Below, one piece after another: positions 8,596 through 48,188 of a stretch of 64,000 nucleotides of DNA (position 1 is the first letter of the stretch; the number at the start of each line of letters is the position of its first letter). The translations under genes and the position numbers were made by a program. Origin of the DNA: an uncultured bacterium (GTDB lineage Bacteria > Lernaellota > Lernaellaia > JACKCT01); NCBI GenBank assembly GCA_964591275.1, contig CAZQAE010000012.1, forward strand, positions 4,860 to 68,859, read 5' to 3'. A model generated the notes under the pieces. That model was given only the letters and a program-made list of their open reading frames with translations. It had not been told where the DNA came from and did no database searches.

Positions 8596-8935
8596 CCGAG
8601 ATATTTGGGGTCGTCCAGTCCCAAAAACTGCCTGCCTAAGAATGTAGGAGCGGTTTCCAAACGCAATTGTGGCACAGTCGTCCTCGGCTATGAATGTAGG
8701 AGAGGCATTCCTGCCTCGACCAAACAGTCATGACAAGAATGTCGTTCCCGCAACGCCCCCCCCCCAACTGGTCTGCGTGCGTGCGTAAACTGATGAAGAA
8801 TGCCAAAAAAATGGCGACACAATATTTGGGGACGTCCATTAGTTTGGTTATTTGCTGAGCGAAAGTTTTTGGGTTTTGCCGATGGAGTTTCATAAGCGGA
8901 CAATTAGTGGAATTGAATGTCCCCAAATATCTCGG
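8596..8935. repeat. MITE-like composite repeat region bounded by 15 bp perfect inverted repeats (CCGAGATATTTGGGG)
   Basis: ccgagatatttgggg at 8596-8610 and its reverse complement at 8921-8935; an internal direct copy aatatttggggacgtcc at 8821-8837. The region also carries a copy of the palindromic family-1 element (8692-8750). It is non-coding, between the GT2 stop and the mutS2 start. Confidence 0.45.
8692..8750. repeat. palindromic dispersed repeat family 1, copy A (GAATGTAGGAGnG...GACAAGAATGTCGTTCC)
   Basis: gaatgtaggagaggcattcctgcctcgacc + aaaca + gtcatgacaagaatgtcgttcc; a truncated left arm also lies at 8639-8664. Confidence 0.55.
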
Positions 8936-9016
8936 CGTTTTAAAAACCCGTGACAGCGGGGTTGCCTGAAAAAGCATCGCAGTTATCAATTCCACGCCGC
9001 AAGCAGGTCTATCACA

Positions 9017-10018
9017 TCACCAGCAAATCAGAATATCTTTTCCTTCGCAGAATCCAAGGCTCTGAGCCGTATCTCGTATTTCCTCCCGGGCGCCGCGTGA
9101 GCCGACGTAGGCGAGCATGAGCCAGGGGGCGGGGCGGGGGATTTGCTCCGGGCGGATGACCGGGCGGCCATGGATTATTTTACCGATTTTGCGTGGATCG
9201 ATGTCCACGTAACACACAATGTCGATGCCCTCCGTCACAAGATGCTCGGCGCGCTTGCGCGTGGTGCGTCCAGCGCCCCAGACGCACACTTCCTTTTTAT
9301 CCGCCAGCGGCCCCCGCGCCAGGTGATGCGCTTTGCACCTCGCAAAAGCGTCGGCGTCGTATCGCGGATCGACGCGGGACAGCCGCTTTGGCAAATCCCG
9401 CCATCCGAGCAGAATCTCCGGGACCTTGGCAAAACGTACGCCGGCGCGGTGCATGCTCAAAATCAGATCGTAATCCTCGGGCCAGCCCATCTCGCGGTAG
9501 CCTCCGGCCTTTTCGTAAACCTCGCGCCGCATCATCCACGTTGGATGCGCCAGCGGGCATTCCGCCCAAATGTCGCGGGCAATATCTTCCGGCTCAGTCA
9601 GCGTGTTTTGCCACTGGATATAATGCGCCCATCCCCCGGCGAAGCTTTTTTTGTCCAGCGGGCCGACCTGGCAGGACGCCAGACCGATTTCCGGCCTTTG
9701 CGTTAAAAGCGCCAGTTGTGTTTTCAGGCGATGCGGCGGGCAGGCGTCGTCGGCGTCCATGCGCGCGATGATCTCGCCGCGCGCCGTTTCGATTCCCGCC
9801 CGTAGCGTCGCGACAATGCCCCCATGCTCTCGGCGCACGGCGCGCACGCGCGCGTCTCGCTTCGCGTATGCATCGATAATGCTCCACGATCCGTCAGAGC
9901 TTCCGTCATCCACCGCGATGATCTCGAAATCGACATCTATCTGCGTGATGAGGTCGTCCAGTGCGCGGTGAAGCGTGGACTCGGCGTTGAATACAGGCAG
10001 GATGACGGAGATCAGCAT
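9017..10018 (-). CDS. family 2 glycosyltransferase with C-terminal extension
   Basis: VILPVFNAE...IIAVDDGSSDGS is a GT2 DXD-type N-terminus; ends 3 nt before the upstream cytidylyltransferase gene. Confidence 0.75.
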   Translation of the reverse strand: MLISVILPVFNAESTLHRALDDLITQIDVDFEIIAVDDGSSDGSWSIIDAYAKRDARVRAVRREHGGIVATLRAGIETARGEIIARMDADDACPPHRLKTQLALLTQRPEIGLASCQVGPLDKKSFAGGWAHYIQWQNTLTEPEDIARDIWAECPLAHPTWMMRREVYEKAGGYREMGWPEDYDLILSMHRAGVRFAKVPEILLGWRDLPKRLSRVDPRYDADAFARCKAHHLARGPLADKKEVCVWGAGRTTRKRAEHLVTEGIDIVCYVDIDPRKIGKIIHGRPVIRPEQIPRPAPWLMLAYVGSRGAREEIRDTAQSLGFCEGKDILICW

Positions 10019-10021
10019 CGT

Positions 10022-11113: not shown

Positions 11114-11509
11114 AAAGCAATCCCGTGTAATGATCCCTTAGCGCATTATATACGCCATGATACGCTTTTATAAAAACCTTTCAGCGATGACGACGGAGAG
11201 GATAGCCGGCCTGATAGCGCTAAAGTTGCCTGAAAATCAAAGCTTTTTTATGCGAATCATCATTCGCACCGCATTGGTCAGAGCGTAAACGGATTCGCGT
11301 GAAATGGCCAATCATCGGGAAATTTCAGCATTTAATGTTGCAAATTCACGAATTAGGCGTTGGCACGGAATCTGCTTTTAACCATGACGGACTATTTCGG
11401 GTCTTTAGACTGTTGCGGTCGAATGACCTAACTTGTTATTTCGCTAAAGGCGTCATAAACTGCTGCGATTTTTCAACCTGGGAAAATCTCAGAGCGCTTC
11501 GAGGAACCC

Positions 11510-12367: not shown

Positions 12368-12398
12368 GGGAAACACGATCCAAACGGGATATTTCGAT

Positions 12399-14933
12399 AT
12401 GAAAACAAGACAAAAAACAGGGAATCCTATGACGATAATGGCTTTCGGTTTAAAAAGGCGATCTTTCATTTTCGGATTGGTCCTTTTGATGATGCTCTCG
12501 ATGACGGTGTTTGCGGCGCAGGCCCAGGAAGAACCGACCAAGAGCGAAGATGAGGAAACCGCGACCGAAGAAGAAGGCGAACCGGACAAAACGGACAATT
12601 CCGACGAGGACGACGATACCGAAGAGGACGATGACACCGAGGAGGAAGAAGAAAAAACCGGAGAGGACAAAAAGGCCAAGCGTACTTTTCCGAGCCTCAA
12701 TGACAACGAACGCAACGTGTCCATCGATTTCACGGATACGGACATCAAGCAGATTGTGAAGATTATGTCGGAAATGACCGGCGAGAACTTCATGGTCGAT
12801 AAGGGCGTTTCCGGAACTGTCACGATCATCAGTCCCACGAAAGTCACGTCCCGGGAAGCCTATGACATTTTCATGTCCATATTGGCCGTTAACGGTTTTA
12901 CCACCGTCAAAGTTGGAAAGATCACAAAAATCATCCCGATCAAAGACGCGCAGTCATCGCCGGTCAAAACAAGAATGTCAGGATTGCCCAGGAGCAGCGA
13001 CGAATTCATCACTCAATTGGTGCCTTTGCAGCATATCGACGCCAATGACGCCATCACGGCCTTTAGAAGCTTCGTTTCGCCCAACGGCAACATGTTCGCC
13101 TACGGACCGTCGAACATGGTCATCATCCTCGATTCTTCCGTCAACGTGAAACGGCTCATGAGAATCCTGATGCAACTCGACGTGTCCGGCGGCAAGCAGG
13201 AGGTCGTGGTCATTCCCCTGGAGTACGCCTCGGCGGAGCAATTGGCTGACGTCATCCTGGAACTTTTCGAAGCGACTTCCTCGAAAACACCAGCGCGAAG
13301 GACCATTCAAAGCCGCCTGCGAGCACGTAGCAAACGTGGAGCCACCAGAAAAACCGCTCTCGGCAGCACATCCGTTCCGGCGAAAGACGACACCAAGATT
13401 CTGGCTGACACACGCACCAACAGCCTGATCGTCAAGGCCGGAAAAGTCGGTCTGACTCAGATAATGAATCTCATCAGAAAATTGGATCAACCTTTGCCCG
13501 GCGGCGAAGGGAAAATCCATGTTGTATTTTTAGAGAACGCGGAATCCGAAGAACTGGCGCAGACACTGGCTGATCTTGCCGGTAGCGGAGGAGGCACGGG
13601 CGCCGCCAGGGGTCTTAGCAAATCCCGCAGCAACACCAAAAACATGGCGCGCAACAGGACTCAGGGACTGCGTGGACAGCAGCAGCAGGGAAATCAGCGA
13701 CTGGGACAAACGACGGGGCGCTTTCTGGCCGACTTCGATGGCGCGGTTCGCATCACGGCGGAGCCTGCCACCAACTCCCTGGTCATCATCGCCAGCAACC
13801 GGGATTTCAAGATTTTAAAGGAAGTTATCGACAAGCTCGATATTCCGCGACGACAGGTCTTTGTTGAGGCGCTGATTATGGAAATCAGCATGGACCGCGG
13901 CTTGGACGTGGGATTCGAGTTCCGTTCGACCAATGATATGAGTGAAGACGGCGTCCAGGTTATCGGCGGCACCAATTACGGCGGCATTCAACAGGCCGCC
14001 GCCAATCCGATGGGCATCTCGGGATTCGCCATCGGCGCCGCCGACGGCACCATTACCTTTGCCGGTGAGACCTTTCCCAACATCGGCGCTCTGTTTCGCG
14101 CCATGGCCACAGATCAGGACGTGAACATTCTGTCCACGCCGCACATATTGACCCTGGACAACGAGGAAGCGGAAATCGTGGTCGCCGACAACGTTCCCTT
14201 CGTGACCGGGCAGATTTTTTCGACGAATAACACGAATCCGACCACGACCATCGAGCGCAAAGACGTGGGCATCACGCTGCGCCTGACGCCGCAGATTAAC
14301 GAAAGCGACTTCGTAAAGCTGATGATCTATCAGGAAGTCAGCCAGGTGACCGACAGTCCCGAGGGTCTTTCGGCGGCCTCGGTGGGCGTGACGACGGCCA
14401 AACGCACCGCCGACACGGTGGTGGTGGTCAAGGATCGACAGACGGTGATCATCGGTGGATTGCTCAAAGACTCCAGCCAGATTGTTGAATCGAAAATCCC
14501 GATCCTGGGCGACATACCTCTGCTGGGATACCTGTTCAAAAGCAGCAAGTCCAAGGTGAGCAAAACGAACCTTCTGATCTTCCTGACGCCGTACATCATC
14601 AAAGACTCGGCGGATATTGAGGAAGTGACGCGCATGACCAACAAGCGGATGGAAGATTTCCGCGAGCGACATCAAATTCCCCAAACCTTCGACCGTTTCA
14701 ACGATCTGGATCCCGACCGGATAACGCCCAAGGAAGGCGTGTTCAAGGCCCCGATGGGAGAGTCCATCGAGACCGATCCGAGGCTGCGCCGCCAGTTGGA
14801 GGGAACGGAAGAAGAGAGCTTTGATGAAAACCAAAGCTCAACGGAAGACGACGAGGAGGATCAGGGCGCACGGGATGAGACATCCACCGGTTCGGAACCG
14901 GACGATCTTCAACCTCTCGAAGAGGGTCAATAG
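12399..14933 (+). CDS. gspD: type II secretion system secretin GspD with acidic N- and C-terminal low-complexity extensions
   Basis: Secretin N domains and the C-terminal secretin core (NVNILSTPHILTLDNEEAEIVVADNVPFVTGQ, LLIFLTPYIIKD); acidic tract EEPTKSEDEETATEEEGEPDKTDNSDEDDDTEEDDDTEEEEEK after the signal peptide. Confidence 0.85.
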   Translation: MKTRQKTGNPMTIMAFGLKRRSFIFGLVLLMMLSMTVFAAQAQEEPTKSEDEETATEEEGEPDKTDNSDEDDDTEEDDDTEEEEEKTGEDKKAKRTFPSLNDNERNVSIDFTDTDIKQIVKIMSEMTGENFMVDKGVSGTVTIISPTKVTSREAYDIFMSILAVNGFTTVKVGKITKIIPIKDAQSSPVKTRMSGLPRSSDEFITQLVPLQHIDANDAITAFRSFVSPNGNMFAYGPSNMVIILDSSVNVKRLMRILMQLDVSGGKQEVVVIPLEYASAEQLADVILELFEATSSKTPARRTIQSRLRARSKRGATRKTALGSTSVPAKDDTKILADTRTNSLIVKAGKVGLTQIMNLIRKLDQPLPGGEGKIHVVFLENAESEELAQTLADLAGSGGGTGAARGLSKSRSNTKNMARNRTQGLRGQQQQGNQRLGQTTGRFLADFDGAVRITAEPATNSLVIIASNRDFKILKEVIDKLDIPRRQVFVEALIMEISMDRGLDVGFEFRSTNDMSEDGVQVIGGTNYGGIQQAAANPMGISGFAIGAADGTITFAGETFPNIGALFRAMATDQDVNILSTPHILTLDNEEAEIVVADNVPFVTGQIFSTNNTNPTTTIERKDVGITLRLTPQINESDFVKLMIYQEVSQVTDSPEGLSAASVGVTTAKRTADTVVVVKDRQTVIIGGLLKDSSQIVESKIPILGDIPLLGYLFKSSKSKVSKTNLLIFLTPYIIKDSADIEEVTRMTNKRMEDFRERHQIPQTFDRFNDLDPDRITPKEGVFKAPMGESIETDPRLRRQLEGTEEESFDENQSSTEDDEEDQGARDETSTGSEPDDLQPLEEGQ

Positions 14934-14976
14934 CGATCGGTTTCGACATCTCCCAACCAGGATTAGTGTAAGGATC

Positions 14977-16674
14977 ATGGCGAAGCGAATTGGTGAAATA
15001 CTTGTTGAAAACGGCGTAATTGACGCGGAGACGCTGGACAAGGCGCTGGAAGCGCAGGAGCAAAAGGGCGGACTTCTGGGCGAGACTCTCATTCGGATGA
15101 AGGCCGTTTCCGAATTGGATTGTCTAAAAGCCCTGGCCGGGCAGTTTCATCTTCCGCTGATAGAGCAAATCGATCCGGAAAAGGTCGATGGCAGTCTTCT
15201 GGCGCGGATTCCGATCAATTACGCGAAAAAGAACCTGGTTTTGCCTCTTCATGTCGAAGACGAAAAGATCCTTGTGGCCTGCACCAATCCCCTGGCCTAT
15301 ACGGTTCTCGACGACCTGAGAGTATTTTTGGGCGGGGAGATTCAGCCCATTCTGTCCACGGTGGGCATGATCTTCGACGCGATCAACATCGCATACGACA
15401 AGGCCAAGGAAACCACTGACGAGATGCTCGACCATCTGGAGGATGAGAGCGCCGCGCCCACCTTCGACCTGGACGAGATCACCGATATCATCGACGCTAC
15501 CGACGAAGATGCGCCCATCATCCGCCTCATCAATCACCTGATGTACAAGGCGGTCAAGGATCGCGCCTCCGATATTCACATCGAGGTTTTTGAAAACGAC
15601 GTCATCGTTCGCTTTCGCATCGACGGCGTGCTTTACGAAGTTATGAAGCCGCCGAAGCGCTTCCACAATTCTATTGCCACGCGCGTGAAAATCATGGCGA
15701 AATTGAATATCGCTGAAAAACGTATCCCGCAGGACGGGCGTATCCGCATCAAAATAGCCGGCAAGGACATCGACATTCGAACCAGCATCATCCCAACGGC
15801 TTGGGGAGAGCGCGTCGTTATGCGCCTGCTGGATAAATCGCAGGTGAGCCTTGACCTGGAAGGATTGGGGCTGGGCGGTGAAAAACTTCATAAGGTTGAA
15901 GCGCTTATTCAAAATCCTTACGGCATTCTCCTGGTGACCGGTCCGACCGGTTCCGGGAAAACCACGACTCTCTATGCCTCGCTGGTTCGTCTCAACAAGC
16001 CGGATGTCAACATTCTGACCGTCGAGGACCCGATAGAATATCAGATTTCCGGCATCGGCCAGATGCAGGTTAATCCGAAGATCAAACTCACTTTCGCCTC
16101 GGGCTTGCGTTCTTTTTTGCGGCAGGATCCCGACATCATTCTCGTCGGCGAAATCCGCGATCTGGAAACTGCGGAAATCGCGATCCAGGCGTCCTTAACC
16201 GGCCATCTGGTCTTCTCGACCCTCCACACAAATGACTCGGCCAGCGCTTTTACGCGTCTGGTCGATATGGGCATGGAGCCTTTCCTGGTGTCCAGTTCGC
16301 TGATCGGCGTTATTGCGCAAAGGCTGGTGCGTGTCCTGTGCCCGCAGTGCAAAGCGGTCTATTCGCCGACCGAAGAAGAGTTGGCAAAAATCGATCTTAA
16401 GCCGGAGGATGTCAAAACTCCCATTTACAAGTCCGTCGGCTGCTCAAACTGCATGGACACCGGATATTCGGATCGAACCGCTATCTACGAAATCCTCACG
16501 ATGGATGAGGACATCCAGCAACTGATTCTTTCCAACGCAGACGCCAACGCTATCAAACGAAAAGCTATCGACAACGGTATGACGACCTTGCGGATGGATG
16601 GAGCAGACAAGGTGCTGCGCGGCGAAACAAGCATCCAGGAAATTCTGCGTGTCACATCGGCGGATGTGCAATGA
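14977..16674 (+). CDS. gspE: type II secretion ATPase GspE
   Basis: Walker A LVTGPTGSGKTTTL, Asp/His boxes and the C-terminal CxxC...CxxC zinc motif (CPQCK...CSNCMDTG); start ATG at 14977 preceded by TAAGGA. Confidence 0.9.
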   Translation: MAKRIGEILVENGVIDAETLDKALEAQEQKGGLLGETLIRMKAVSELDCLKALAGQFHLPLIEQIDPEKVDGSLLARIPINYAKKNLVLPLHVEDEKILVACTNPLAYTVLDDLRVFLGGEIQPILSTVGMIFDAINIAYDKAKETTDEMLDHLEDESAAPTFDLDEITDIIDATDEDAPIIRLINHLMYKAVKDRASDIHIEVFENDVIVRFRIDGVLYEVMKPPKRFHNSIATRVKIMAKLNIAEKRIPQDGRIRIKIAGKDIDIRTSIIPTAWGERVVMRLLDKSQVSLDLEGLGLGGEKLHKVEALIQNPYGILLVTGPTGSGKTTTLYASLVRLNKPDVNILTVEDPIEYQISGIGQMQVNPKIKLTFASGLRSFLRQDPDIILVGEIRDLETAEIAIQASLTGHLVFSTLHTNDSASAFTRLVDMGMEPFLVSSSLIGVIAQRLVRVLCPQCKAVYSPTEEELAKIDLKPEDVKTPIYKSVGCSNCMDTGYSDRTAIYEILTMDEDIQQLILSNADANAIKRKAIDNGMTTLRMDGADKVLRGETSIQEILRVTSADVQ

Positions 16675-16715
16675 GCAGTGAACAATGAGCAATGAACAAT
16701 TAGCAATGAACAGTG
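16669..16715. repeat. 14 bp tandem repeat (CAATGAGCAATGAA x about 3.3) starting at the gspE stop codon
   Basis: caatgagcagtgaa caatgagcaatgaa caattagcaatgaa cagtg. Confidence 0.7.
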
Positions 16716-16797
16716 TAGGAGCGACATTCTTGTCGCGATCCCGGCGTAGGGGGCAGGTCCCCCGTGCCTGCCCGTGTAGGAGCGATATAACTCGCGG
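16713..16797. repeat. palindromic dispersed repeat family 1, copy B (two left-arm copies flanking a G5-N5-C5 hairpin)
   Basis: gtgtaggagcgacattcttgtcgcga ... gggggcaggtccccc ... gtgtaggagcgatataactcgcg; lies in the gspE-gspF intergenic region. Confidence 0.5.
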
Positions 16798-16813
16798 AAA
16801 ATAAGCGAAACCA

Positions 16814-18046
16814 ATGCCCGTTTATCAATACAAAGCCATGAACGCCCAGGGAAAATCGATCTCGGGCCTTATCGACGCGGACAATGAAAACACCGCCAAG
16901 GCGAAACTCCGTCAGGAAAAAAAATTCCCCACCTCCATCGAAGAGGTTGAGGAAGGCAAGGTCACGCGGGGCAAGGGCCTGTCCATGGAGATCGACCTGC
17001 GTGTCTTGCTGGGACGCATCAAAACGCAGGATCTGGCCATAGCTTTGCGCCAGTTCTCCACATTGATCGGCGCGAGTATTCCCATGGACAACGCCTTGAT
17101 GGCCCTTTCCAAGCAGGTCGAAAATCCACTTCTTATGAAGATATTCACGCAGGTGCGTGAGAAGGTGACTCAAGGGACTTCTCTGGCCAACGCCTTGAAG
17201 GATTTTCCGAAAACTTTCACGCCTCTTATGGTGAACATGATCAACGCCGGCGAGCAATCCGGCACCCTGGATCAGGTTTTGGGGCGCATTGCCGACTTCT
17301 CCGAGGACACGCTCGACCGTCAGCAAAGAATCAAATCCGCCATCATGTATCCGATTTTCATGCTCTTTATCGGCTCGGGCATTATGGCCTATCTCGTCGC
17401 CTTCGTGATCCCCAAAATATCCCAGATTTTTGAGGGAATGCACAAAACTCTGCCGCCGATGACCCTGCTGCTGCTGGGCACCGCCGACTTCATCAAAAAT
17501 TACTGGTGGTTTGCGATAATCCTCGGAATCGCGGGGTACTGGCTTTTTTCCCGCTGGCGCAAAACACCCAAAGGGCGCAAGAAATTCGACCGCTTCACTC
17601 TTTGGCTGCCGGTGTTCGGGCCGCTGATCCGGAAAATTGCCGTGAGCCGTTTCACACGCACTTTGGGAACCCTGCTGAGCAGCGGCGTGCCGATCATCGA
17701 GTCGATGAACATTGTCAAAAACGTCGTTTCCAATGTCATCATCGAAGAGGCGATTGACGGCGCCAAGGACAATATCCGCGAAGGGCAGTCAGTCTCCCGT
17801 CCCCTGGAGGCTTCCGGCGTATTTCCTCCCATGGTGATTCACATGATTATGGTGGGTGAACAGACCGGAGAGCTGGAGGATATGCTCTTTCGCGTGGCGG
17901 ACGCCTATGACCGGGAAGTCGCCTCGGCCATTACGGGTATGATGGCCCTGCTGGAGCCGGTGATGATTCTCGTCATGGCCGGCGCCGTCGGATTTGCCGT
18001 CATTTCGATTCTGATGCCGATCATGGACATGACGACGGGAATGTGA
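16814..18046 (+). CDS. gspF: type II secretion inner-membrane platform protein GspF
   Basis: MPVYQYKAMNAQGKSISG is the GspF/PilC N-terminus; two repeated T2SSF domains with 3 TM segments. Confidence 0.9.
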   Translation: MPVYQYKAMNAQGKSISGLIDADNENTAKAKLRQEKKFPTSIEEVEEGKVTRGKGLSMEIDLRVLLGRIKTQDLAIALRQFSTLIGASIPMDNALMALSKQVENPLLMKIFTQVREKVTQGTSLANALKDFPKTFTPLMVNMINAGEQSGTLDQVLGRIADFSEDTLDRQQRIKSAIMYPIFMLFIGSGIMAYLVAFVIPKISQIFEGMHKTLPPMTLLLLGTADFIKNYWWFAIILGIAGYWLFSRWRKTPKGRKKFDRFTLWLPVFGPLIRKIAVSRFTRTLGTLLSSGVPIIESMNIVKNVVSNVIIEEAIDGAKDNIREGQSVSRPLEASGVFPPMVIHMIMVGEQTGELEDMLFRVADAYDREVASAITGMMALLEPVMILVMAGAVGFAVISILMPIMDMTTGM

Positions 18047-18698: not shown

Positions 18699-19373
18699 TT
18701 GAAATCGCGATGGATACAGCATGTCGCCAGGGGATTACGCTGCGGTGATTTCAAGTCGCGGGCGCGCGCCGTGACGATTTGCATCAGCGCAAAATCCCTT
18801 CCCCGAAACGCCGCCAAAGGATTCACGTTACTGGAAATCCTCGCTGTGATGCTCATTATCGCCATTGTCATGTCCATCGCCATACCCCGATTCGGAGACG
18901 TTTTTCAGACCAATGTCAAAGGAGCGATGCGGAAATTCACTGGAATGGTGAAATTTTGTTTCCATGAGTCGGTCATTAAGCAGACTCATTTGAGGCTGAT
19001 GATTGATCCGGTCAAAGGAGAATACTGGCCGACCTTATTGGCGACATCCGGCAGCGTTGGCCAATTCGTGAGTTTAACCGGCAGCGATGTCATTTCAAAA
19101 AAAGGCAAGCTTCCTAACGGCATTCGCTTCATTGACGTGGTGACGCCTCATAACATCTTTAAAATCGACAAGGACGAGGCCTTTATCGCCTTTTATCCGA
19201 CCGGTTTCGTGGAAAGGTCAGTGATTCATCTCGGCGACGACGCCGGTCGATTTTACACCCTCGTCACGCAGCCTCTCACAGGGGATATGGAGGTTCTGGA
19301 CGGTTACGTGGACATTGCCGACACCAATCAATTCGAGGGACCGTTCTCGCTGTCGCAAAGCGGAAACCAATGA
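18699..19373 (+). CDS. gspH: minor pseudopilin GspH-like
   Basis: KG|FTLLEILAVMLIIAIVMSIAIP prepilin motif; the ORF begins with TTG; an internal GTG at 18761 would give a 17 aa leader; the true start is unresolved. Confidence 0.6.
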   Translation: MKSRWIQHVARGLRCGDFKSRARAVTICISAKSLPRNAAKGFTLLEILAVMLIIAIVMSIAIPRFGDVFQTNVKGAMRKFTGMVKFCFHESVIKQTHLRLMIDPVKGEYWPTLLATSGSVGQFVSLTGSDVISKKGKLPNGIRFIDVVTPHNIFKIDKDEAFIAFYPTGFVERSVIHLGDDAGRFYTLVTQPLTGDMEVLDGYVDIADTNQFEGPFSLSQSGNQ

Positions 19374-21891: not shown

Positions 21892-23783
21892 CGCACATAC
21901 CGCGAAAAACCATCGCCTACCTGATCGTCGCCGCTCTTGCGCCCGCATGGCTGGCTGTCTATTCGCTCATCCAGTTGGACGAAAAGCTCACCTGGCAGTG
22001 GATGATCGACGCGGCGGCATTTTGCGCGTTGTATATGACTGTTTTTGTCATGGCCCCGAAAAAGAAGTGGCTTCGTATTACTTTCGCGCTGATTGTGGCT
22101 GGCTGGTTCGTGTTTTTCCACGTGGGAAATGTCGCGTATTACAAGTTCTACGATACCTGGGCGCACATCCATATTTTCGACCAATGGAAAGATTCCTTCG
22201 CTCTGGGGAAATCGGTTTCTGAACTTCTTGGCCTGTGGGATTGGCTTTTCGGCGTTCTCGCCCCTCTTTTGATAGCCATCGCATCTTCGCTGATCAACGT
22301 CGATCCAAAAAGAAAAATACTGGCGCCCGTTTTCCTGATCAGTGCTTTCGCCCTGGTTATTGTTCATTACATAAGCGTCGGATCGCCTGTCGGCACGAAA
22401 CACCAGGAACCGATGATGTATTTTATCAGGGCGCCGATTGATGCGCGCGTTGACGCTTACAGGAAAAGGAAAGGAATCGAGCGCGTCGCCGCCAACCTGG
22501 ACCGCTACTACCCCATCGACCACGCAATTTATCAGCGAAGTCAAAATGCCAACCCGCCATTCGCCTCGGAGCCGGTTTCCGGCACGCAGGCTCCAAAAGA
22601 CTCCGTCAACATCGTCATCATCATGATGGAGTCGGTTGTCGCCTCGGCATCCGGGGCCTGGGGCGCAAGTCCTTCCTATACGCCGAATTTGGACGCATTG
22701 GCCGCGAACGGACTCATGGCGAAAAACTTTTACGCCAACGGGAGCCAGACCGTGCGCGGGGAACTGGCGAGTCTGTGTTCCTATTATCCGAACCTGTCCG
22801 GCGGACCAATTTATTCAAGGTATCATAAAACAGAGATGATCTGTCTGCCGGAAATCCTTGGCTCCTTTGGCTATCAGACCATGTGGATATCGTCTTATAA
22901 AAAAACCTATAACAAAAAAAGCCGCTTTCTTCGCCGACATGGCGTCGATGAAATTTACGACATCAAGGACATGCCGCCCGGCTATCAAAAAATCGGATGG
23001 GGCCCTGCCGATGAGAATCTGTTCGAGTCAGCGGCGACGCGCCTGGATGCGGCAACTGAGCCTTTTTTCGCCGAGATCATGACCCTCTCGAACCATCATC
23101 CTTTCCATTGGGATTATCCCAGCAACGCAACCGCGCCGCGCGGCGGGCATTCAGAGCCGTATGAAAACTTCATGCGCGGGATTTTTTATACGGACTACGC
23201 AATAGGCAAATTCTTTGAAAGCGTGCGTGATAGTGAGTGGTTTGCCCGAACCATTTTCGTGATCGTAGGCGACCACGGCATATGGCTCTTCCCGGAGGAT
23301 TCCGCAAAAGGTCCCGTCGAAAAACAGGAAGCCTATTTTCGCGTCCCGATGGTTATCTATGCGCCGGATTTGCTCGAAGCGCAGGTTTTTGAGCAGGTTG
23401 CATCGCAAGTGGATATTGCTCCGACGGTCATGGATATTATCGGTGCCAGGGCGCCAAACACATTTGTCGGGCAAAGCCTTCTTGCGCCTTCCGGCACCCC
23501 TCCTTTCGCCGTCATGCTGCATGACAGGCAATGGAACATCAGGCGCGGCAACGAGTATTGTTATGATGTCGGCGAGCAATGTTTTTACGAACACATTCCG
23601 CGCTGTCCGAAGGGATACAAAAAGGACCTGGGCCAGCCCGTTTCGTGTTTTCATTTTGAAGATGATTTATTGAGCCATTCCGAAAAGTGGCGGCAAAAGC
23701 CGCTAATAAAAAAGAATTTAGGGCTTATGTCTTTTGCCGAGGATTTGACAGCCTATCATCACAGGCTGTTGCTACGGAAGTAG
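21888..23783 (+). CDS. LTA-synthase/phosphoglycerol-transferase (sulfatase-superfamily) membrane protein
   Basis: Five N-terminal TM helices, then an alkaline-phosphatase-superfamily domain (IMMESVVAS...GSQTVRGE, SNHHPF, VGDHG). No CxPxR sulfatase motif, so LtaS/MdoB/EptA-like. The GTG start overlaps the gspK stop as GTGA. Confidence 0.7.
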   Translation: MTHIPRKTIAYLIVAALAPAWLAVYSLIQLDEKLTWQWMIDAAAFCALYMTVFVMAPKKKWLRITFALIVAGWFVFFHVGNVAYYKFYDTWAHIHIFDQWKDSFALGKSVSELLGLWDWLFGVLAPLLIAIASSLINVDPKRKILAPVFLISAFALVIVHYISVGSPVGTKHQEPMMYFIRAPIDARVDAYRKRKGIERVAANLDRYYPIDHAIYQRSQNANPPFASEPVSGTQAPKDSVNIVIIMMESVVASASGAWGASPSYTPNLDALAANGLMAKNFYANGSQTVRGELASLCSYYPNLSGGPIYSRYHKTEMICLPEILGSFGYQTMWISSYKKTYNKKSRFLRRHGVDEIYDIKDMPPGYQKIGWGPADENLFESAATRLDAATEPFFAEIMTLSNHHPFHWDYPSNATAPRGGHSEPYENFMRGIFYTDYAIGKFFESVRDSEWFARTIFVIVGDHGIWLFPEDSAKGPVEKQEAYFRVPMVIYAPDLLEAQVFEQVASQVDIAPTVMDIIGARAPNTFVGQSLLAPSGTPPFAVMLHDRQWNIRRGNEYCYDVGEQCFYEHIPRCPKGYKKDLGQPVSCFHFEDDLLSHSEKWRQKPLIKKNLGLMSFAEDLTAYHHRLLLRK

Positions 23784-23788
23784 GAGGC

Positions 23789-23813
23789 ATGAAGTGTGAA
23801 GTATGAGGTCTGA
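23789..23813 (+). repeat. 3'-end motif family 2, copy 1 (ATGAAGTGTGAAGTATGAGGTCTGA), sense to the upstream gene
   Basis: Lies 5 nt after the TAG stop of the sulfatase-family gene; heptamer-like units ATGAAGT/GTGAAGT/ATGAGGT. Confidence 0.6.
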
Positions 23814-23914
23814 ATTTTTGGAGGCGCTATCTGTTCGTCCGCTCAATGAGATAGCGAATGAAAACAAGCAAGTTGCTCCAATTGTTGTTTTACGACGCTT
23901 TTTCGCATCATCAT

Positions 23915-23939
23915 TCACACCTCATACTTCATACTTCAT
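23915..23939 (-). repeat. 3'-end motif family 2, copy 2 (ATGAAGTATGAAGTATGAGGTGTGA on the minus strand)
   Basis: Overlaps the last three codons and the stop of the minus-strand lipoprotein gene; inverted relative to copy 1, which lies about 100 bp away. Confidence 0.6.
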
Positions 23940-31078: not shown

Positions 31079-32482
31079 ATGCTGAAGCACTGTAGTAAAG
31101 TTTTGGTTTTCCTGGTGATTTTCTCTTTCCTGTCATGCGTTGGCCCGGATTCCGACGACGATGACGCGGCTGACGATGACACACAAGCAGATGACGATGA
31201 CGCGGACGACGATTCCGACGACGACGTTGATGATGACGTTAATGATGACGCGGACGACGACGTTAATGACGACGTTAATGATGACGCGGACGACGATGCG
31301 GACGACGACGTTAATGACGACGTGGACGATGACATTGACGATGATGCTGACGACGACATTGTCCTTCCACATCCTCCAGGGCGTTACGTTGCATTTGTCA
31401 CCGACGCCACGGAAAACGCCATCGAAACTCTTATGAATTTTCGGACGCAGCAGGGCTACAGTGTTGAAATCGTCAATGTTGATGACCTGATGGCGCAAAC
31501 GCCCGGCGCTCCCGTCGAGGAATTGGCCAGGGATTATTTGATGGATACCTACGAGACTTCCCGCGAAGTTTCTAAACCCTACTGCCTGATCGTCGCCGGT
31601 TACAACACAATGCCGATGCCGGTCCTGGATACGGATCCGATGAATCCGAATACTTACTCAACGGCCACCGATGCCTATTACGCGGATATCGATGTCGATT
31701 GGGATTTCGACGGCGACGGCGTGATCGGCGAGTGGGACGAGGACGTCTTCTCTCTCGATGCCGAATATTTGATTGGCCGCATTCCCAGCGACGATCCCGA
31801 ATTGGTGGGCGATTATTGCGACAAGGTTGTTGATTTTGAATCGGACGGTGAATCGGCCTATAAGTGGGAAACCTTGCTTCTGGCTGGCTATATCGCCATC
31901 GACGGCGATTCGGCGATCATTTTGAATATGATCCGCAACAACACTCTCATGCCAGGCGGTTATGGCGTGCATCGCATGTACGAAGAAGGCGGCCCGTTTC
32001 CAGGCGAGGAAATTCTAAACACAGACAATCTTCTGGAGCAATGGGGAAACAATCCTTACGGACTGGTGATATGGGCCAGTCACGGATCGACGCATGGGGC
32101 ATTTTTTATCGACAGCGACGATGCGCCGTTATTCGGCGCGGGCGAAACTTCCATGGTAATGTCTTCGGCATGCAACCAAAGCAATCCGGACGCTGATGAC
32201 AACATCGGCGCTTCGATGGTTTTGCATGGACCGGGAGCAGCTTTCGTCGGTTCATCGGAGATCACGCATCCCGGAGAGTTGGGAGAAGGCTCCCTGATTT
32301 TCATGGTCATGACGGACTACTACATGAACCTAAACGACACGCTGGGCCACGCCCTGTATCATTCCATGGATGTCTATATCGAGAACTTTTTTATGCTGCC
32401 CTATGATCGCGGATTGTTCCTGCGCAATTATTACGGCTTCCACATCCTCGGCGATCCAGCGCAGACCTATTGGCCGAGATGA
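31079..32482 (+). CDS. secreted gingipain-like (C25 family) cysteine peptidase with N-terminal poly-Asp linker
   Basis: Lipoprotein signal (FLSC) then DSDDDDAADDD...(DDDV/DDDA)n; the catalytic-dyad context SHGSTHGAF ... MVMSSACNQS resembles the C25 GHGSETAW ... FDVACVNG. Confidence 0.5.
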   Translation: MLKHCSKVLVFLVIFSFLSCVGPDSDDDDAADDDTQADDDDADDDSDDDVDDDVNDDADDDVNDDVNDDADDDADDDVNDDVDDDIDDDADDDIVLPHPPGRYVAFVTDATENAIETLMNFRTQQGYSVEIVNVDDLMAQTPGAPVEELARDYLMDTYETSREVSKPYCLIVAGYNTMPMPVLDTDPMNPNTYSTATDAYYADIDVDWDFDGDGVIGEWDEDVFSLDAEYLIGRIPSDDPELVGDYCDKVVDFESDGESAYKWETLLLAGYIAIDGDSAIILNMIRNNTLMPGGYGVHRMYEEGGPFPGEEILNTDNLLEQWGNNPYGLVIWASHGSTHGAFFIDSDDAPLFGAGETSMVMSSACNQSNPDADDNIGASMVLHGPGAAFVGSSEITHPGELGEGSLIFMVMTDYYMNLNDTLGHALYHSMDVYIENFFMLPYDRGLFLRNYYGFHILGDPAQTYWPR

Positions 32483-32543: not shown

Positions 32544-32574
32544 TCATACCTCATACTTCAAACTTCATAACTCA
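32544..32574 (-). repeat. 3'-end motif family 2, copy 3 (ATGAAGTTTGAAGTATGAGGTATGA on the minus strand)
   Basis: Starts 5 nt after the TGA stop of the minus-strand FGE-fold gene, sense to that gene. Confidence 0.6.
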
Positions 32575-33450
32575 TTGCGCGGCGCGGACGCAGCGAAATC
32601 CGACAAGGTCAATGGCCACGTTATCCTGTATCCAGAACCGGTCCGAGGCCCGCATGAAGGATGCGATGCCCGAGACGGCGCCGCCGCGAAGGATATGCCC
32701 TGTACCCTCGGAAGGTCCTGAAGGATCCTGTCCGGGGCTTTGCGCGTAGTACTGCGCGTCGTAGGAGTCGTTGACCCACTCGCGGATATTTCCGAGCATG
32801 TCGTAGAGGCCGAAATCGTTTGGCTCCTTTTGACCCACTGGCTGGGGTGTGTTTTGCGAATTGTCCTTATACCATGCGATGTCATTGAGGCAGTCATTGT
32901 CGTCGCCGCAATAGTATTTCGTTGTTGAATTCGCCCTGGCTGCGTATTCCCATTCCGCTTCCGTGGGAAGGCGACCGTCCATCGCCTGGCAAAATAGTTT
33001 GGCGTATAGCCAAACGACGTTTTCCACCGGACAATCCGAGCATTCGCCATACTGACTGGGATTTTCACCCATCACTTCAAAGAACTGACTCTGCGTGATT
33101 TCCGACGCCGTCATTTCCATAGGGGATATTGTTACAGTGTGAACCGGGCTTTCGTCTTCCGCGCAGATCGTGTCGCCGGCGGAACACCCCATCTCGAAAG
33201 CGCCGCCCGCTATTGGCATCCACTGAAGCTCCGTCGTGCCGTATCCGAAATCGTCGTCATCATCATCATCGTCGTCATCTCCATCGTCTTCCTCATCGTC
33301 ATCGTCGCCGGAGCAGGCCGACATCAAAAACAATGAACACGCAACGATCAAAGTTGCGGCCAGGGTGAATTTTTTAAAAAGGCGGATCATGGCATACCTC
33401 GCGAAAGTGTTATTGGCCGGATGCTCCGGCGAAAAATAAGGGCAATCCAT
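32572..33450 (-). CDS. FGE-sulfatase-fold (SUMF1-like) lipoprotein with poly-Asp linker, lacking catalytic Cys
   Basis: Signal + lipobox (LMSACSGDDDDEEDDGDDDDDDDDDDF); GRLPTEAEWEYAARA and a C-terminal GFRCVR; no Cys in the region homologous to the FGE active site. Confidence 0.6.
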   Translation of the reverse strand: MDCPYFSPEHPANNTFARYAMIRLFKKFTLAATLIVACSLFLMSACSGDDDDEEDDGDDDDDDDDDDFGYGTTELQWMPIAGGAFEMGCSAGDTICAEDESPVHTVTISPMEMTASEITQSQFFEVMGENPSQYGECSDCPVENVVWLYAKLFCQAMDGRLPTEAEWEYAARANSTTKYYCGDDNDCLNDIAWYKDNSQNTPQPVGQKEPNDFGLYDMLGNIREWVNDSYDAQYYAQSPGQDPSGPSEGTGHILRGGAVSGIASFMRASDRFWIQDNVAIDLVGFRCVRAAQ

Positions 33451-33677: not shown

Positions 33678-34886
33678 ATGTTTTGTTTTCGATATGGTCT
33701 ATATTTTCTAATTGTGGCTCTTTCTGTTTTCGTCGGCCTTGCGTCGGTCGCCTGCACGAGTGCTTCCGGCGGCGACGATGATGACGATGATGGCCAAGAC
33801 CCCCAAGATGACGACGCTGACGATGACGGAGATGATTGCATCAACTGTTCGGGCACAGCCGAATGCACAGAGGCTCTGGGAGCAGGGTGGGTCTGCATCA
33901 ATGATTGCTGCGTCGATTATGGCGCGGACGACGATTTGAACGACGATGTCGATGATGACGCCGACGACGATGTCGATGACGATGTCGACGACGACGTGGA
34001 TGACGATGTCGATGATGATGTCGATGATGACGCCGATGACGATATCACAGAAGGCTTCGTGGAAATCCAATCCGGTGGGTTTTCTATGGGCAGCCCCTGG
34101 GATGAGGGAGGAAGGGACAGCGATGAAGATGATTATGATGTCACGCTGACGCGGTCCTTTGAAATCATGGCCAAGGAAGTTGCACAGGTTCGTTTTGAGG
34201 ATCTTATGGGATTCAATCCGAGCACCTTTGGCGATTGCGGTGATTTCTGCCCGATCGAAACAGTGAGTTGGTACGACGCGCTGGCCTACGCCAACAAACT
34301 GTCCGCGGAATACGGCAAGCTGTCGTGCTATATCCTTTCCGATATCCGATGTTTTAACGGCTTTTACGACACGGCGCCTTTCTATTGTCGGGATCACGGA
34401 GGCATTTACGAAGCGACAGTCGCCCTCAATAGCGTTGATTCCGTGTATGAGTGCGCGGGCTATCGCCTTCCCACGGAAGCTGAGTGGGAATACGCGGCCA
34501 GAGCCGGTTCAGAAACGGCGTTTTACAGCGGCGACATCACCCGGTTTTTTTGCACGCCCATGGACCCTGTTTTAAGCGAAATCGGGTGGTATTGTGGCAA
34601 TGCGGACGAGCCGAATCCCATCGGCGGGAAAATCCCCAACGACTGGTGGATCTATGATGCCAGCGGCAATGTATACGAATGGGTTTGGGATTTGTACGAC
34701 ACGTACCCCGCCGACCATGAGACAGACCCGGAAGTGTCGGAAGGTGCGTTTCTCGAAAATCGCGCTAGTCGCGGCGGCAGTTGGCGGCAGACGTCTTCAA
34801 AATGTCGTAGCGCCAATCGTGCTTCTCGCGCTCCCAATGAAAGAGCTGACGATCTCGGTTTCAGGCTGGTTAGGACCCTGGATTGA
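33678..34886 (+). CDS. FGE-sulfatase-fold (SUMF1-like) lipoprotein with poly-Asp tracts and Cys-rich module
   Basis: Lipobox VACTSASGGDDDDDDG...; GYRLPTEAEWEYAARAGS; C-terminal GGSW...LGFRLVR; only one of the two FGE catalytic cysteines is present (SSKC). Confidence 0.65.
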   Translation: MFCFRYGLYFLIVALSVFVGLASVACTSASGGDDDDDDGQDPQDDDADDDGDDCINCSGTAECTEALGAGWVCINDCCVDYGADDDLNDDVDDDADDDVDDDVDDDVDDDVDDDVDDDADDDITEGFVEIQSGGFSMGSPWDEGGRDSDEDDYDVTLTRSFEIMAKEVAQVRFEDLMGFNPSTFGDCGDFCPIETVSWYDALAYANKLSAEYGKLSCYILSDIRCFNGFYDTAPFYCRDHGGIYEATVALNSVDSVYECAGYRLPTEAEWEYAARAGSETAFYSGDITRFFCTPMDPVLSEIGWYCGNADEPNPIGGKIPNDWWIYDASGNVYEWVWDLYDTYPADHETDPEVSEGAFLENRASRGGSWRQTSSKCRSANRASRAPNERADDLGFRLVRTLD

Positions 34887-41998: not shown

Positions 41999-42436
41999 AT
42001 GCCGTGGCTCAAATTTCTGACCTGGGTGTTTTGCCTTTCATTCATTGCCGGCTCTTTTGTATTGACCGCGTGCGGGGGCGCTGAAGACGACGGGGAAGAC
42101 GAGGATGACGAATCCGACGACGATACCGAGCCGGAGGAGGCGACATCGCAGGAGTGTGTCGATGCCATGACCCGACTTTTCGGCGAGGACGGATGTGCGA
42201 ATCCCGGTGAATATCCGTATTACAGCGATGAAAATATTCAAGGTTCCTGCGATCAGGATTTCGGGGTTGCCGCGCAGTCCGAATGTCATAAAGCGGCTTA
42301 TGCGAATTTTGTCGCGTGCATGGAGCAAATAGATTGCGCCGATGCGCATGACAGCTACCAGGTTTGGACGGATTGTGGAATCGACTTCGGCGACGCCATC
42401 AATATCTGCGATTGCCCGCCGGACGGCATTTGCTAG
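41999..42436 (+). CDS. small secreted Cys-rich lipoprotein with acidic tract
   Basis: Lipobox VLTACGGAEDDGEDEDDESDDDTEPEE then 10 Cys in about 100 aa. Confidence 0.5.
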   Translation: MPWLKFLTWVFCLSFIAGSFVLTACGGAEDDGEDEDDESDDDTEPEEATSQECVDAMTRLFGEDGCANPGEYPYYSDENIQGSCDQDFGVAAQSECHKAAYANFVACMEQIDCADAHDSYQVWTDCGIDFGDAINICDCPPDGIC

Positions 42437-46214: not shown

Positions 46215-46635
46215 CTGTTTCTCCTGCAAATTATTTGTAAAAAACCAAGGGATAATATCTACCACAAGGAACAGGAACAAGTCTATTAGCCATGGACCCT
46301 TGAGCGTGCAAATAAAATAAGTGCTAATTCACGCATGCCTCCTCAAAGCCCGCAGGGCGGTACAATAATAGCCGGCAGCGTTAGCTGCCGGGACGCCTTG
46401 TCACTCTCAAATTACACGAACTCCGAAGGAGTGTCACATCCATTTTAGACGATGCCTCGATCTTGGGAAAATGTTTGCTGAAAAACAGTTGAATTAGACT
46501 CCATACCCTAAACCCTGACCCCTAGCCCCTTTGCCCGGATGTTTGCATCCTGACTTTTCTTTTCAATAAAATGGACCTTTTACGCATTCGTGTGTATGTT
46601 TTCTTTCGTCAAAGGGTATTGCAAGCCCTGAAAAG

Positions 46636-48030
46636 TTGATGAAGGAGCGGCGAATGAGATTCGGCAATTTCCATAACATTTTTGTCGTAGCGCTTATGGC
46701 GGCGACGTTATTTTTCGCGGCGGGCGCGGGTAATCCAGCCCTTGCCGAAGACCAGGCAGGCTCTGGCGCAAAAATGGAAAAAGTGGATGAGTCGGATAAT
46801 TCGCCTCTGCTTGTCGGCGCCGCGCGCATTGACATCACGCCGAGCAAGTCTGTCATCATGGGCGGCTACGGCGTATGTGCTTTTTCCAAGGCGCTTTGCC
46901 GCTGGTCCAAAGGCGTACACGATCCGATCTATGCAACAGCCATATATTTTGAAAAGCGCGATGAAGCTTTTGTTCTGATCGAGGCTGATCTCGTCGGGCT
47001 CGTGCAGACAGACATCATAAAAATCCAGAGCCTTGTTTCAGAGCGGACGCACCTGCTGCCGACCAGGGTGATCGTTGCTGCGACGCACACGCATTCCAGC
47101 CCCGATACCGTCGGCCTGTGGGGTTCCATCCTTCCGCCCGACTCGGGAAGGGATGAAGGCTATATCGAAATGATCATTGCCAAAGCTGCCGTTGTCGCCG
47201 CGCAAGCCAAGGGATCGGCTCGGCCCGCGCGGCTGTTTTACGCTGTCGGTGAGCAGGCTGACCTGCACCGCAATACCTACGACGATAAGACCAGCAATTT
47301 TTATATCGACCACACGATCACGGTGCTCAAGGCGGCTGATAAAAATGGCCGCGTCATCGCCACCTTGACGAACTGGGGCTGCCATCCAACGACTGAAGGA
47401 ATGAAAACGCGCCTCATTTCATCGGATTGGGTGGGAGCTTTTTATAAGGATATGGCTGCGCACGAGTCCGGCGTGCACATGTTCGTCAACGGCTCCATCG
47501 GCGCCGCCATCCAGCCCAATGACAATTGGAAACGCAAAAATCTCGAAGGCGATGGAGAAAATTTCCGATGGGCGGGTCTCCTGGGGACGACCCTGTCGGC
47601 GCAGGTGCGCGAAATGATGAAGGAAATGGAAGAAGCTCGTTTCGATCACATGACCGTTCAATACACCGAAGCATCCATTCCCATGATGAACGGTATTTAT
47701 CGCTTCGGGAGCAACCTTGGGCTTTTGAATCTGCCGGTGCCGAAAGTGGGCGAGCCTCTGAATTTCAGGATTGCGTCGATGACGATGGGGCCATTGCGTT
47801 TTGGAACGATGCCCGGAGAAATTTCACCGCAGATTGGCGATGGCATTAGAAAACGAATGGGCGGCAAGGCGCAAATCCTCATCGGCCTGGGGCAGGACTG
47901 GTTCGGGTATGTCCTCGACCGGGAGCAGTATGAAAATGAATTGTATTCCTATGAGAAAATGCTGAGCCCCGGTCCCGACTTCGCCGAAGCGATCTATGGC
48001 GTTTACGACGAAATGACTTTTCCAAAATAG
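46636..48030 (+). CDS. secreted neutral/alkaline ceramidase-like hydrolase
   Basis: Signal peptide; GAARIDITP...IMGGYG and ATHTHSSPDT resemble the neutral ceramidase N-domain motifs; shorter than characterised ceramidases. Confidence 0.45.
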   Translation: MMKERRMRFGNFHNIFVVALMAATLFFAAGAGNPALAEDQAGSGAKMEKVDESDNSPLLVGAARIDITPSKSVIMGGYGVCAFSKALCRWSKGVHDPIYATAIYFEKRDEAFVLIEADLVGLVQTDIIKIQSLVSERTHLLPTRVIVAATHTHSSPDTVGLWGSILPPDSGRDEGYIEMIIAKAAVVAAQAKGSARPARLFYAVGEQADLHRNTYDDKTSNFYIDHTITVLKAADKNGRVIATLTNWGCHPTTEGMKTRLISSDWVGAFYKDMAAHESGVHMFVNGSIGAAIQPNDNWKRKNLEGDGENFRWAGLLGTTLSAQVREMMKEMEEARFDHMTVQYTEASIPMMNGIYRFGSNLGLLNLPVPKVGEPLNFRIASMTMGPLRFGTMPGEISPQIGDGIRKRMGGKAQILIGLGQDWFGYVLDREQYENELYSYEKMLSPGPDFAEAIYGVYDEMTFPK

Positions 48031-48113
48031 AATCACATCGCGAATAGAAGTGACGCAGGCAATGCGACGCACGCAGCGGTCAGTGATGATTGTGGGAGCG
48101 GTTTTGTTCTCGT

Positions 48114-48188
48114 GAATGTAGGAGCGACATTCCTGTCGCGACCTTGGCTGCGATGTCGATCAGTCACGACAAGAATGTCGTTCCTACA
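48114..48188. repeat. palindromic dispersed repeat family 1, copy C (complete hairpin, 26 bp arms)
   Basis: gaatgtaggagcgacattcctgtcgcgacc ... gtcacgacaagaatgtcgttcctaca; lies between the convergent ceramidase-like and panD genes. Confidence 0.6.

Follow-up and report, generated by a model that had tools for sequence, protein, structure and literature searches.

Three intergenic hairpin clusters in an uncultured Lernaellota bacterium are very probably REP elements of the GTAG-1 type

What are the short palindromes that recur between genes in the genome of an uncultured bacterium of the lineage Lernaellota? The window, by which we mean the whole 64,000-nt stretch analyzed here (assembly GCA_964591275.1, contig CAZQAE010000012.1, positions 4,860 to 68,859), carries such palindromes in three intergenic regions, here called loci A, B and C. 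An earlier reading made from the letters alone (hereafter the sequence-only reading) had described them as copies of one palindromic element and had considered a repetitive extragenic palindromic (REP) element, a terminator or mRNA-stability determinant, and a transposable element of the miniature inverted-repeat kind (MITE). Our analysis makes it very probable that the three repeats are genuine REP elements of the GTAG-1 or group-3 type, with a unit of approximately 25 nt, hairpins of a kind that is copied around bacterial chromosomes by a domesticated transposase, the REP-associated tyrosine transposase (RAYT).

When the window was searched with the 26-mer TGTAGGAGCGACATTCCTGTCGCGAC, allowing at most three mismatches, matches were found at 16714-16739 (+), 48117-48142 (+) and 48163-48188 (-), and the chance expectation from 100 dinucleotide-preserving shuffles was 0.00. 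A repeat finder placed 8691-8721, 16710-16740 and 48113-48143 in one family, and the motif read directly at all three places was TGTAGGAGCGACATTCYTGTCGCGAY. Altogether, the window has eight units of the pattern TGTAG-GA-GCGACA-TTCY-TGTCGC-GAY, seven of them solid and one degenerate, and all are intergenic and confined to the three regions. Both the occurrence of one repeat at three intergenic loci and the gene contexts assigned to these loci by the sequence-only reading were borne out, the latter by Pfam matches. A generic search of the window for perfect hairpins tagged with GTAG or GTGG was uninformative (20 matches versus approximately 14 in Markov-simulated sequence), and the specific family alone stands out.

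In each unit, an unpaired GTAG and the dinucleotide GA precede a perfect 6-bp stem, which encloses a loop of 4 nt and is followed by GA(T/C). The GTAG is present in six of the eight window units; the degenerate unit at locus C (C0) has GTGG, and in one unit at locus A (A2) the tag has decayed to GCGG. The individual 26-mers fold alone into the 6-bp hairpin with energies of -6.0 to -6.6 kcal/mol (z -3.0 to -4.2). Across 46 distinct units, which had been gathered by similarity to a consensus, two-sided changes were seen in five of the six stem pairs and 93% of the cells were paired; such values were reached by 0-1 of 500 shuffles, and all slid registers were worse. The GTAG/GTGG columns were at least 90% conserved across the same units. 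The compensatory changes support the small hairpin over a long one, and two compensated stems occur in the window itself, namely GAGGCA/TGCCTC in unit A1 and ACGACA/TGTCGT in unit C2. The parsing of the element as a single long hairpin was not supported: the 26-bp "arms" of the sequence-only reading are elementary REP units, each with its GTAG and its own 6-bp hairpin. It is the 25-nt REP that forms the functional unit, and a long hairpin exists at locus C alone.

A covariance model was built from 40 distinct units from other genomes and six diverged window units, and was run over all 64 kb with filters off; the window units were thus themselves part of the seed. Matches were obtained at 8641+, 8693+, 8724-, 16712+, 16773+, 48115+ and 48160- (E 2e-10 to 3e-4), together with a weak match at 48089+, and otherwise none above noise in the 64 kb.

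The link to an enzyme comes from other genomes. As probes for RAYT genes we used an E. coli RayT sequence and then the RAYT of the isolate Geomesophilobacter sediminis. The latter genome contains at least 67 units of the family in 27 fetched stretches, and in one of these (L020:240-725, minus strand) a 161-aa RAYT gene has window-consensus REP units on both sides. The protein scored 143 bits against the NCBIfam model NF047646 REP_Tyr_transpos (cutoff 80) and matched Pfam Y1_Tnp, its sole sequence match in the PDB was E. coli TnpA-REP (4ER8; E ~1e-3), and the name given to the gene by NCBI is REP-associated tyrosine transposase. Among the first 110 fetched loci, RAYT matches were confined to this locus (full length) and L044 (C-terminal fragment).

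In three relatives of this RAYT with 54-57% identity (P0002, P0003 and P0012), the flanking units have variant stems, GCGGCA/TGCCGC and GCGACC/GGTCGC. At P0002 and P0003 the cold-shock domain (CSD) and LOG-family neighbors are kept as in Geomesophilobacter, which corresponds to the conserved-position, vertical pattern described for RAYTs. Eighty further metagenomic loci encoding this RAYT clade were fetched, and approximately 65 of them contained units of the form GT[AG]G-GA-(6-7 bp stem)-(2-5 nt loop)-stem-GA[T/A/C]. The stems of these units were diverse and in some cases Pseudomonas-like (GCGAGC-tt-GCTCGC, GCGGGC-tt-GCCCGC). In the RAYT alignment, both the HUH motif (MPDHLHW) and the motif of the catalytic tyrosine (ARYLVMNPVRA) are retained.

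The surroundings of the Geomesophilobacter gene hold further repeats. A doublet in the rare orientation with GTAG inside lies beside it at L020:757-824, and on its other side (L020:161-220) a REP unit is accompanied by a second REP class (TGTGGGAGCCACATCCTTGCCGAGA). A second abundant REP class in this genome, TGTGGGAGCGCCATTCCTGGCGCGA, had 15 copies in the fetched stretches.

The family is by no means limited to the window. The source-strain DNA examined came to approximately 82 kb, i.e., the window with ~10 kb to its left and ~8 kb to its right; contigs L112 and L113 overlap with 100% identity, and L111, a piece of an 89-kb ENA contig, represents the same strain at 99.9%. The 100%-identical overlapping contig carries a fourth locus, L112:8685-8715, approximately 1 kb left of the window. 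When 185,579 species-representative genomes were scanned with GTAGGARCGACATTCYTGTCGYGA, at least 108 stretches were found in at least 25 other genomes, the expected number of chance matches being approximately 0.03 in 596 Gb by our own arithmetic. The suspicion that only three copies exist, under which the sequence-only reading would have seen a local duplication, is thus dispelled.

Hosts were assigned from the record title and NCBI taxonomy. Among the matches listed, the exact 24-mer occurred, in many cases with numerous copies, in genomes labelled as at least six phyla, with GC contents of 38-68% and an unchanged core. These included Geobacterales and other Desulfuromonadia (with metagenome-assembled genomes (MAGs) of Desulfuromusa and Geopsychrobacter), six Verrucomicrobiota MAGs, Armatimonadota of three classes, Acidobacteriota and Poribacteria, and one or two each in MAGs labelled Bacillota and Chloroflexota (Anaerolineae). 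In these other genomes, 93 of 186 units (50%) lay in crude open reading frames (ORFs), which covered 90.5% of the bases. Inverted doublets had GTAG outside in 22 cases and inside in one, with spacers from -6 (overlapping) to 157 nt, and the inverted pairs at most 120 nt apart were mostly heterodimers of two stem/loop subtypes, GCGACA being paired with GCGGCA in other phyla. As to the host of the window, the best named relatives of its MutS2 were 'Deltaproteobacteria bacterium' MAGs (51%) and Ca. Lernaella (43%).

A Ca. Hebobacteria MAG (Armatimonadota) contains dense direct arrays of the same REP (L064:3459-3538, L063:2686-2873 and L002:3572-3727), often located at the ends of contigs; from start to start the units are 28 nt apart, or 45 and 74 nt in alternation. 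These arrays are much tighter than the clusters of the window and probably break the assembly.

The units occur singly, as a direct array (locus B) or as an inverted heterodimer with GTAG outside (loci C and A). Locus C, between the convergent ceramidase-like gene (46636-48030, +) and panD (48198-48596, -), holds the complete form, a 72-nt inverted doublet at 48117-48188 whose GTAG termini lie outside (a head-to-head (HH) dimer, or REP doublet forming a hairpin (REPIN)). Its left-type unit C1 (48117-48142, +) reads TGTAG-GA-GCGACA-TTCC-TGTCGC-GAC (43.9 bits), a variable spacer of 20 nt follows (48143-48162), and the right-type unit C2 (48163-48188, -) reads TGTAG-GA-ACGACA-TTCT-TGTCGT-GAC (43.2 bits), with a compensated G-C to A-T change in the stem. 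As one long hairpin of single-stranded DNA the doublet folds with -21.2 kcal/mol (z = -5.05; reached by 0 of 200 shuffles), in agreement with the complete hairpin described by the sequence-only reading, although the 19-nt loop given there is a 20-nt spacer. Directly upstream lies the degenerate REP-like C0 (48091-48116, +; TGTGG-GA-GCGGTTTTGTTCTCG), which matched the model weakly (9.7 bits, E = 1.4) and the position of which parallels A0 at locus A and L124:17656 in a close relative of the source strain.

Locus A lies between GT2 (9017-10018, -) and mutS2 (6025-8442, -). Unit A1 (8695-8720, +; TGTAG-GA-GAGGCA-TTCC-TGCCTC-GAC; 38.7 bits) forms a hairpin of -6.0 kcal/mol and shows two compensatory pair changes relative to GCGACA/TGTCGC. 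A2 (8727-8752, -; 31.2 bits) is its decaying inverted partner of the right-arm subtype, ACGACA-TTCT-TGTCAT, with GCGG in place of GTAG and one stem mismatch; it differs from C2 by three mismatches and from A1 at 9 of 26 positions. The doublet measures 58 nt with a 6-nt spacer. Since the compensations in A1 abolish pairing with the inverted partner, the two units fold as separate small hairpins. The same arms as in copy C around a 5-nt loop, as described before, are thus not what is present: the right arm is 8727-8752, the spacer is 6 nt, and the arms differ as stated. Likewise, what had been taken for an extra truncated left arm is a full variant unit, A0 (8643-8668, +; TGTAG-GA-GCGGTTT-CC-AAACGC), with a stem of the second class, GCGGTTT/AAACGC (model R1, 25 bits, E = 5.8e-5). 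A GCGGTT...AACCGC unit analogous to A0 heads a REP cluster of the close relative at L124:17656.

The locus A cluster lies in a window-specific segment of 444 bp (8532-8975), which also holds three copies of GATATTTGGGGNCGTCCA. In the relative contig L123 (94% identity), the counterpart of this segment is 2187 bp encoding a GGDEF protein; a weak model match there (L123, 7887-7923) lies inside the C-terminal coding part of the GGDEF gene and was judged to be a chance match. Two of the GATATTTGGGGNCGTCCA copies, 8596-8642 and 8889-8935, are arranged as an inverted repeat of 47 nt, with 74% complementarity, on either side of the cluster, and the third is internal (8821-8838). The fetched loci contained no further copies except in L111, the same strain's copy of the region. 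This repeat could be a remnant of some other small element, or a scar left by a deletion.

Locus B occupies the space between gspE (14821-16674) and gspF (16814-18046), a 139-nt intergenic insert (16675-16813, +). A heptamer tandem array, ATGARCA in approximately 6.6 copies (16664-16712, +), stands directly 5' of the consensus unit B1 (16714-16739, +; TGTAG-GA-GCGACA-TTCT-TGTCGC-GAT; 43.5 bits). There follow a GTAG-tagged hairpin of another stem class (16746-16773, +; GTAG-G-GGGCAGG-tcccccgtg-CCTGCCC), which alone is not above chance, and the variant unit B2 (16775-16800, +; TGTAG-GA-GCGA-tataac-TCGC-GG; 22.3 bits, E = 3e-4), direct to B1. The locus is therefore made up of two direct units with a third GTAG-tagged hairpin between them; it is not inverted and not a REPIN. 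The sequence-only reading had correctly seen a hairpin between two units, but this hairpin is itself GTAG-tagged and the second unit is a variant.

A three-part layout is common to loci A and C and to L124:17652-17778 of the close relative: a leading GCGGTT-type variant, a left-type GCGACA-TTCC unit and, after a variable spacer, an inverted right-type ACGACA-TTCT unit. The spacers are unrelated between C, A and the relative (L124:17728-17748). The heterodimer of left and right type is seen at C, in decayed form at A, and at a non-orthologous site of the relative (L124:17702-17778). This hints that the doublet rather than the single REP may be the replicating unit, but three copies are too few for more than a hint.

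Two relatives of the source strain were available for comparison of orthologous sites, one with approximately 94% nucleotide identity (L123/L124, JGI 3300083231) and one with approximately 76% (L122/L125, ENA ERZ21869602); their contigs were reached via window proteins. From the gspE stop to the gspF start there are 3 nt (CAATAATCAATG) in L125, 124 nt in L124 and 139 nt in the window, and the extra DNA consists of the heptamer array and REP units, the array of the window being two heptamers (14 nt) longer than that in L124. The relative at 94% lacks the locus A cluster and has REP clusters at two sites that have none in the window. One of these is a three-unit cluster between convergent genes, where the window has an unrelated heptamer palindrome of 156 nt and L125 has 6 nt. 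The other is a REP unit with a heptamer array in a 562-nt insert (12559-13120) between two pseudopilin genes. In the window these two genes of the type II secretion system overlap (ATGA, 19370-19373), and the downstream pseudopilin gene of L124 was called longer at the N-terminus (244 aa versus 189 aa). On the aligned sequences, such empty and filled orthologous sites indicate gain and loss of REPs, and from the differences to the 94% relative it follows that the clusters turn over within a few percent of sequence divergence. Filled and empty sites between genomes of 94% and 76% identity are useful for dating REP turnover.

Intergenic heptamer arrays of three kinds, ATGARCA, GAAGTAT/GAGGTAT and GAATGCG, occur in the window lineage, at window positions 16664-16712, 23777-23814, 23914-23939 (an inverted pair with the preceding) and 32544-32575, at L112:8646-8685 and at L124:12712-12775. 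Three of the arrays directly adjoin a REP unit, and the inverted GAAGTAT arrays at 23777-23939 hold the same intergenic site as the REP cluster of the relative. The first 110 fetched loci, among them those from every genome of another phylum, gave no heptamer array beside a REP outside the lineage of the window. The arrays are reminiscent of the STRR (short tandemly repeated repetitive) heptamers of cyanobacteria.

If the repeats are REPs copied by a RAYT, the following course of events would be expected. In transiently single-stranded DNA the REP unit would fold, as suggested by the biochemistry of TnpA-REP from E. coli, Stenotrophomonas and Marinomonas. A single-copy chromosomal RAYT would recognize the hairpin and GTAG and cut adjacent to it via its catalytic tyrosine, with a 5'-phosphotyrosine intermediate (PMC3479197, PMC8266576). 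Rejoining of the strands by the RAYT would then result in copying of units or doublets to other extragenic sites without target-site duplication. Any effects on transcription or mRNA stability, e.g., an uncoupling of gspE and gspF, would be a by-product and possible side effect, and would not account for the existence of the elements.

Several observations weigh against this explanation. Neither the window nor the ~18 kb of same-strain flanks yielded a RAYT gene, so that dependence on a RAYT in the source genome is something we infer, and the mechanism is borrowed from other RAYT clades and REP variants and may apply here by analogy. The ~82 kb of the source genome yielded only four loci with nine units, including the weak one, and several window units are decayed (A2, with GTAG changed to GCGG, B2 and C0). 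At locus B, the window differs from the 94% relative by six substitutions in ~122 nt (~5%), which is near the genomic background and may mean that the units are no longer active and persist as neutral relics. The empty gspE-gspF site would also be compatible with a deletion in the outgroup.

The hairpins could instead be regulatory RNA or DNA structures (terminators, attenuators or 3'-end stabilizers) selected by the host and repeated because of a common function. In this respect it is of note that the units are located 3' of ORFs and between convergent or co-directional genes, as described for REPs generally (PMC3733652), that a stable long hairpin lies between convergent genes at locus C, and that the insert at locus B parts two formerly coupled genes and could modulate expression of gspF. 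However, the units do not keep one orientation with respect to transcription, being antisense at locus A and sense at locus B, the clusters are not kept at orthologous sites of 94%-identical genomes, and the insert shared at locus B diverges at approximately the background rate. The same sequence is, moreover, found beside unrelated genes in many phyla and flanking RAYT genes. A search for a hairpin followed by a T-run, as in a terminator, gave no site at loci A and B, and the site near C (48265-48280) lies inside panD, off the repeat. Nor did Rfam 15 give a family match at the repeats; its sole match in the window was a tRNA gene at 51378-51450 (67.9 bits), which explains a short 89% match to the Verrucomicrobiia contig L068. 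We therefore consider a primarily regulatory origin improbable.

Locus C, with two 26-bp inverted repeats around a short core, could also be taken for a classical MITE, i.e., a deletion derivative of a DDE insertion sequence with 26-bp terminal inverted repeats that is mobilized in trans by a transposase and leaves target-site duplications. Against this, single units without partners and direct arrays exist (locus B; L112:8685), the arms are autonomous hairpins whose internal covariation breaks arm-to-arm complementarity, and the spacers are unrelated between copies. The sole gene found flanked by units is a Y1/HUH RAYT, and no other transposase was linked. At the filled and empty gspE-gspF sites, only CAATG or ATG was found at both ends, which is ambiguous as a target-site duplication since it belongs to the stop/start context and the heptamer array. 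It is thus very unlikely that the elements are MITEs. What the sequence-only reading had proposed as a REP-type or mobile element is upheld by the anatomy, the RAYT linkage and the empty and filled sites, whereas its MITE and terminator variants are not, the latter for want of a T-run. Even less credence can be given to a local duplication or a chance similarity restricted to this stretch of chromosome: the 64-kb window indeed has just three loci, but no matches were expected by chance, a fourth locus lies outside the window, the flanks are unrelated between copies, and the 94% relative and the other genomes mentioned above have additional, non-orthologous copies. We favor the REP explanation over each of these.

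A CRISPR-like arrangement was also considered and rejected, as the window shows no regular repeat-spacer periodicity and the units carry GTAG tags and are linked to RAYTs.

A separate matter is how one 24-mer came to be present in so many phyla. It is possible, albeit rather doubtful, that a single REP/REPIN lineage, along with its RAYT, has spread by horizontal transfer among distant bacterial phyla. This reading is based on the identical 24-mer, on heterodimers of the same kind, on the GC range of 38-68% and on stems that otherwise vary among related RAYT loci. The alternative is a very ancient conservation under constraint by RAYT recognition, in support of which the RAYTs with this stem type on their flanks share only ~48-57% identity. 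The RAYTs of the clade are ~45-60% identical and star-like in their relationships, and their similarity does not predict which REP stem type accompanies them. Mis-binning of MAGs could be the source of the single-copy cross-phylum cases. A viral vector is unlikely, as 2.9 million viral contigs gave one match to the 24-mer. Horizontal spread, if true, would contradict the view of REPIN-RAYT systems as strictly vertical, 'endosymbiont-like' replicators whose diversification takes place inside their own lineages; conservation would instead mean an unusually strong constraint on loop and stem by this RAYT clade.

Apart from the REPs, long runs of tandem repeats rich in GAC/GAT, their periods being 12, 36 and 48, lie within ORFs on both strands of the window (31129-31407, 33760-34070, 33240-33320, 12573-12665, 42073-42155 and 61940-62066). 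These tracts would encode very acidic, Asp-rich low-complexity stretches in several proteins.

How do the window elements compare with known systems? In the GTAG superfamily, a REP is an extragenic palindrome of 20-50 nt that can fold into a stem-loop and typically has more than 100 copies in the genome, and a RAYT gene with such REPs on its flanks is termed a REPtron. REPs are defined as small palindromes preceded by GTAG, those of group 3 being short and perfectly palindromic, and a REP joined to an inverted REP by a variable linker is a bacterial interspersed mosaic element (BIME) (PMC8266576). In GTAG-1 REPs two unpaired nucleotides come after GTAG and the tail of 3 bp is conserved, their HH dimers have GTAG outside, and some REP families span distant taxa (PMC3733652). 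The window elements show every structural feature of a GTAG-1 or group-3-type REP: in common with these they have GTAG/GTGG, the unpaired GA, a perfect stem of 6-7 bp usually starting with GCG, a short loop and GA(T/A/C). The three puzzling intergenic hairpin clusters in the annotation of the window are accordingly explained as REPs and REPINs, one of which split the formerly translationally coupled gspE and gspF within a type II secretion operon.

The closest published likeness is found in the Pseudomonas fluorescens complex, whose classes include PF18 (GTAGGAGCGAGCyyGCTCGCGA) and PF8 (GTGGGAGCGAGCTTGCTCGCGAT) (Nunvar et al. 2013, PMC3686654). PF18 is literally identical to the window unit in its head, GTAGGAGCGA, and in its tail, TCGCGA, whereas the stem-loop is GCGAGC-TT-GCTCGC in PF18 and GCGACA-TTCY-TGTCGC here; within the literature that could be searched, the exact stem-loop variant of the window did not turn up. 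Extragenic location, inverted dimers and the flanking of RAYT genes are also shared with the Pseudomonas GTAG-1 REPs. The host of the window, however, is an uncultured lineage far from the Gammaproteobacteria, and its 24-mer spans many phyla. The REP class itself is well known, and what is added here is the extension of RAYT-linked GTAG-1-type REPs to an uncultured lineage.

REPINs consist of two inverted REPs with a variable spacer and depend on a single-copy, vertically inherited RAYT (Bertels & Rainey 2011; bioRxiv 10.1101/2021.07.10.451892). Loci C and A share with them the two inverted REPs with conserved REP parts, the variable spacer and the extragenic location, and the doublet architecture seen in other genomes, with GTAG nearly always outside, matches the published HH dimers and REPINs (PMC3733652; bioRxiv 10.1101/2021.07.10.451892). 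The likeness in RAYT dependence lies in the orthologues P0002 and P0003, which keep their CSD and LOG neighbors. Unlike typical REPINs of ~100 bp, the doublets of the window are shorter (72 and 58 nt) and form a single long hairpin only at C, and the sharing of an identical REP across phyla is not predicted by strictly vertical inheritance. With the REPs and BIMEs of E. coli (4ER8; PMC3479197, PMC8266576) the family has in common the GTAG tag, heterodimers of two REP subtypes in alternating orientation (the y and z types in E. coli) and an HUH/Y1 enzyme. The group 2 REPs of E. coli have a greater length, and their activity requires a stem that is imperfect and bulged, whereas the window stems are short and perfect, and the linked Geomesophilobacter RAYT is only distantly related to E. 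coli TnpA-REP (E ~1e-3).

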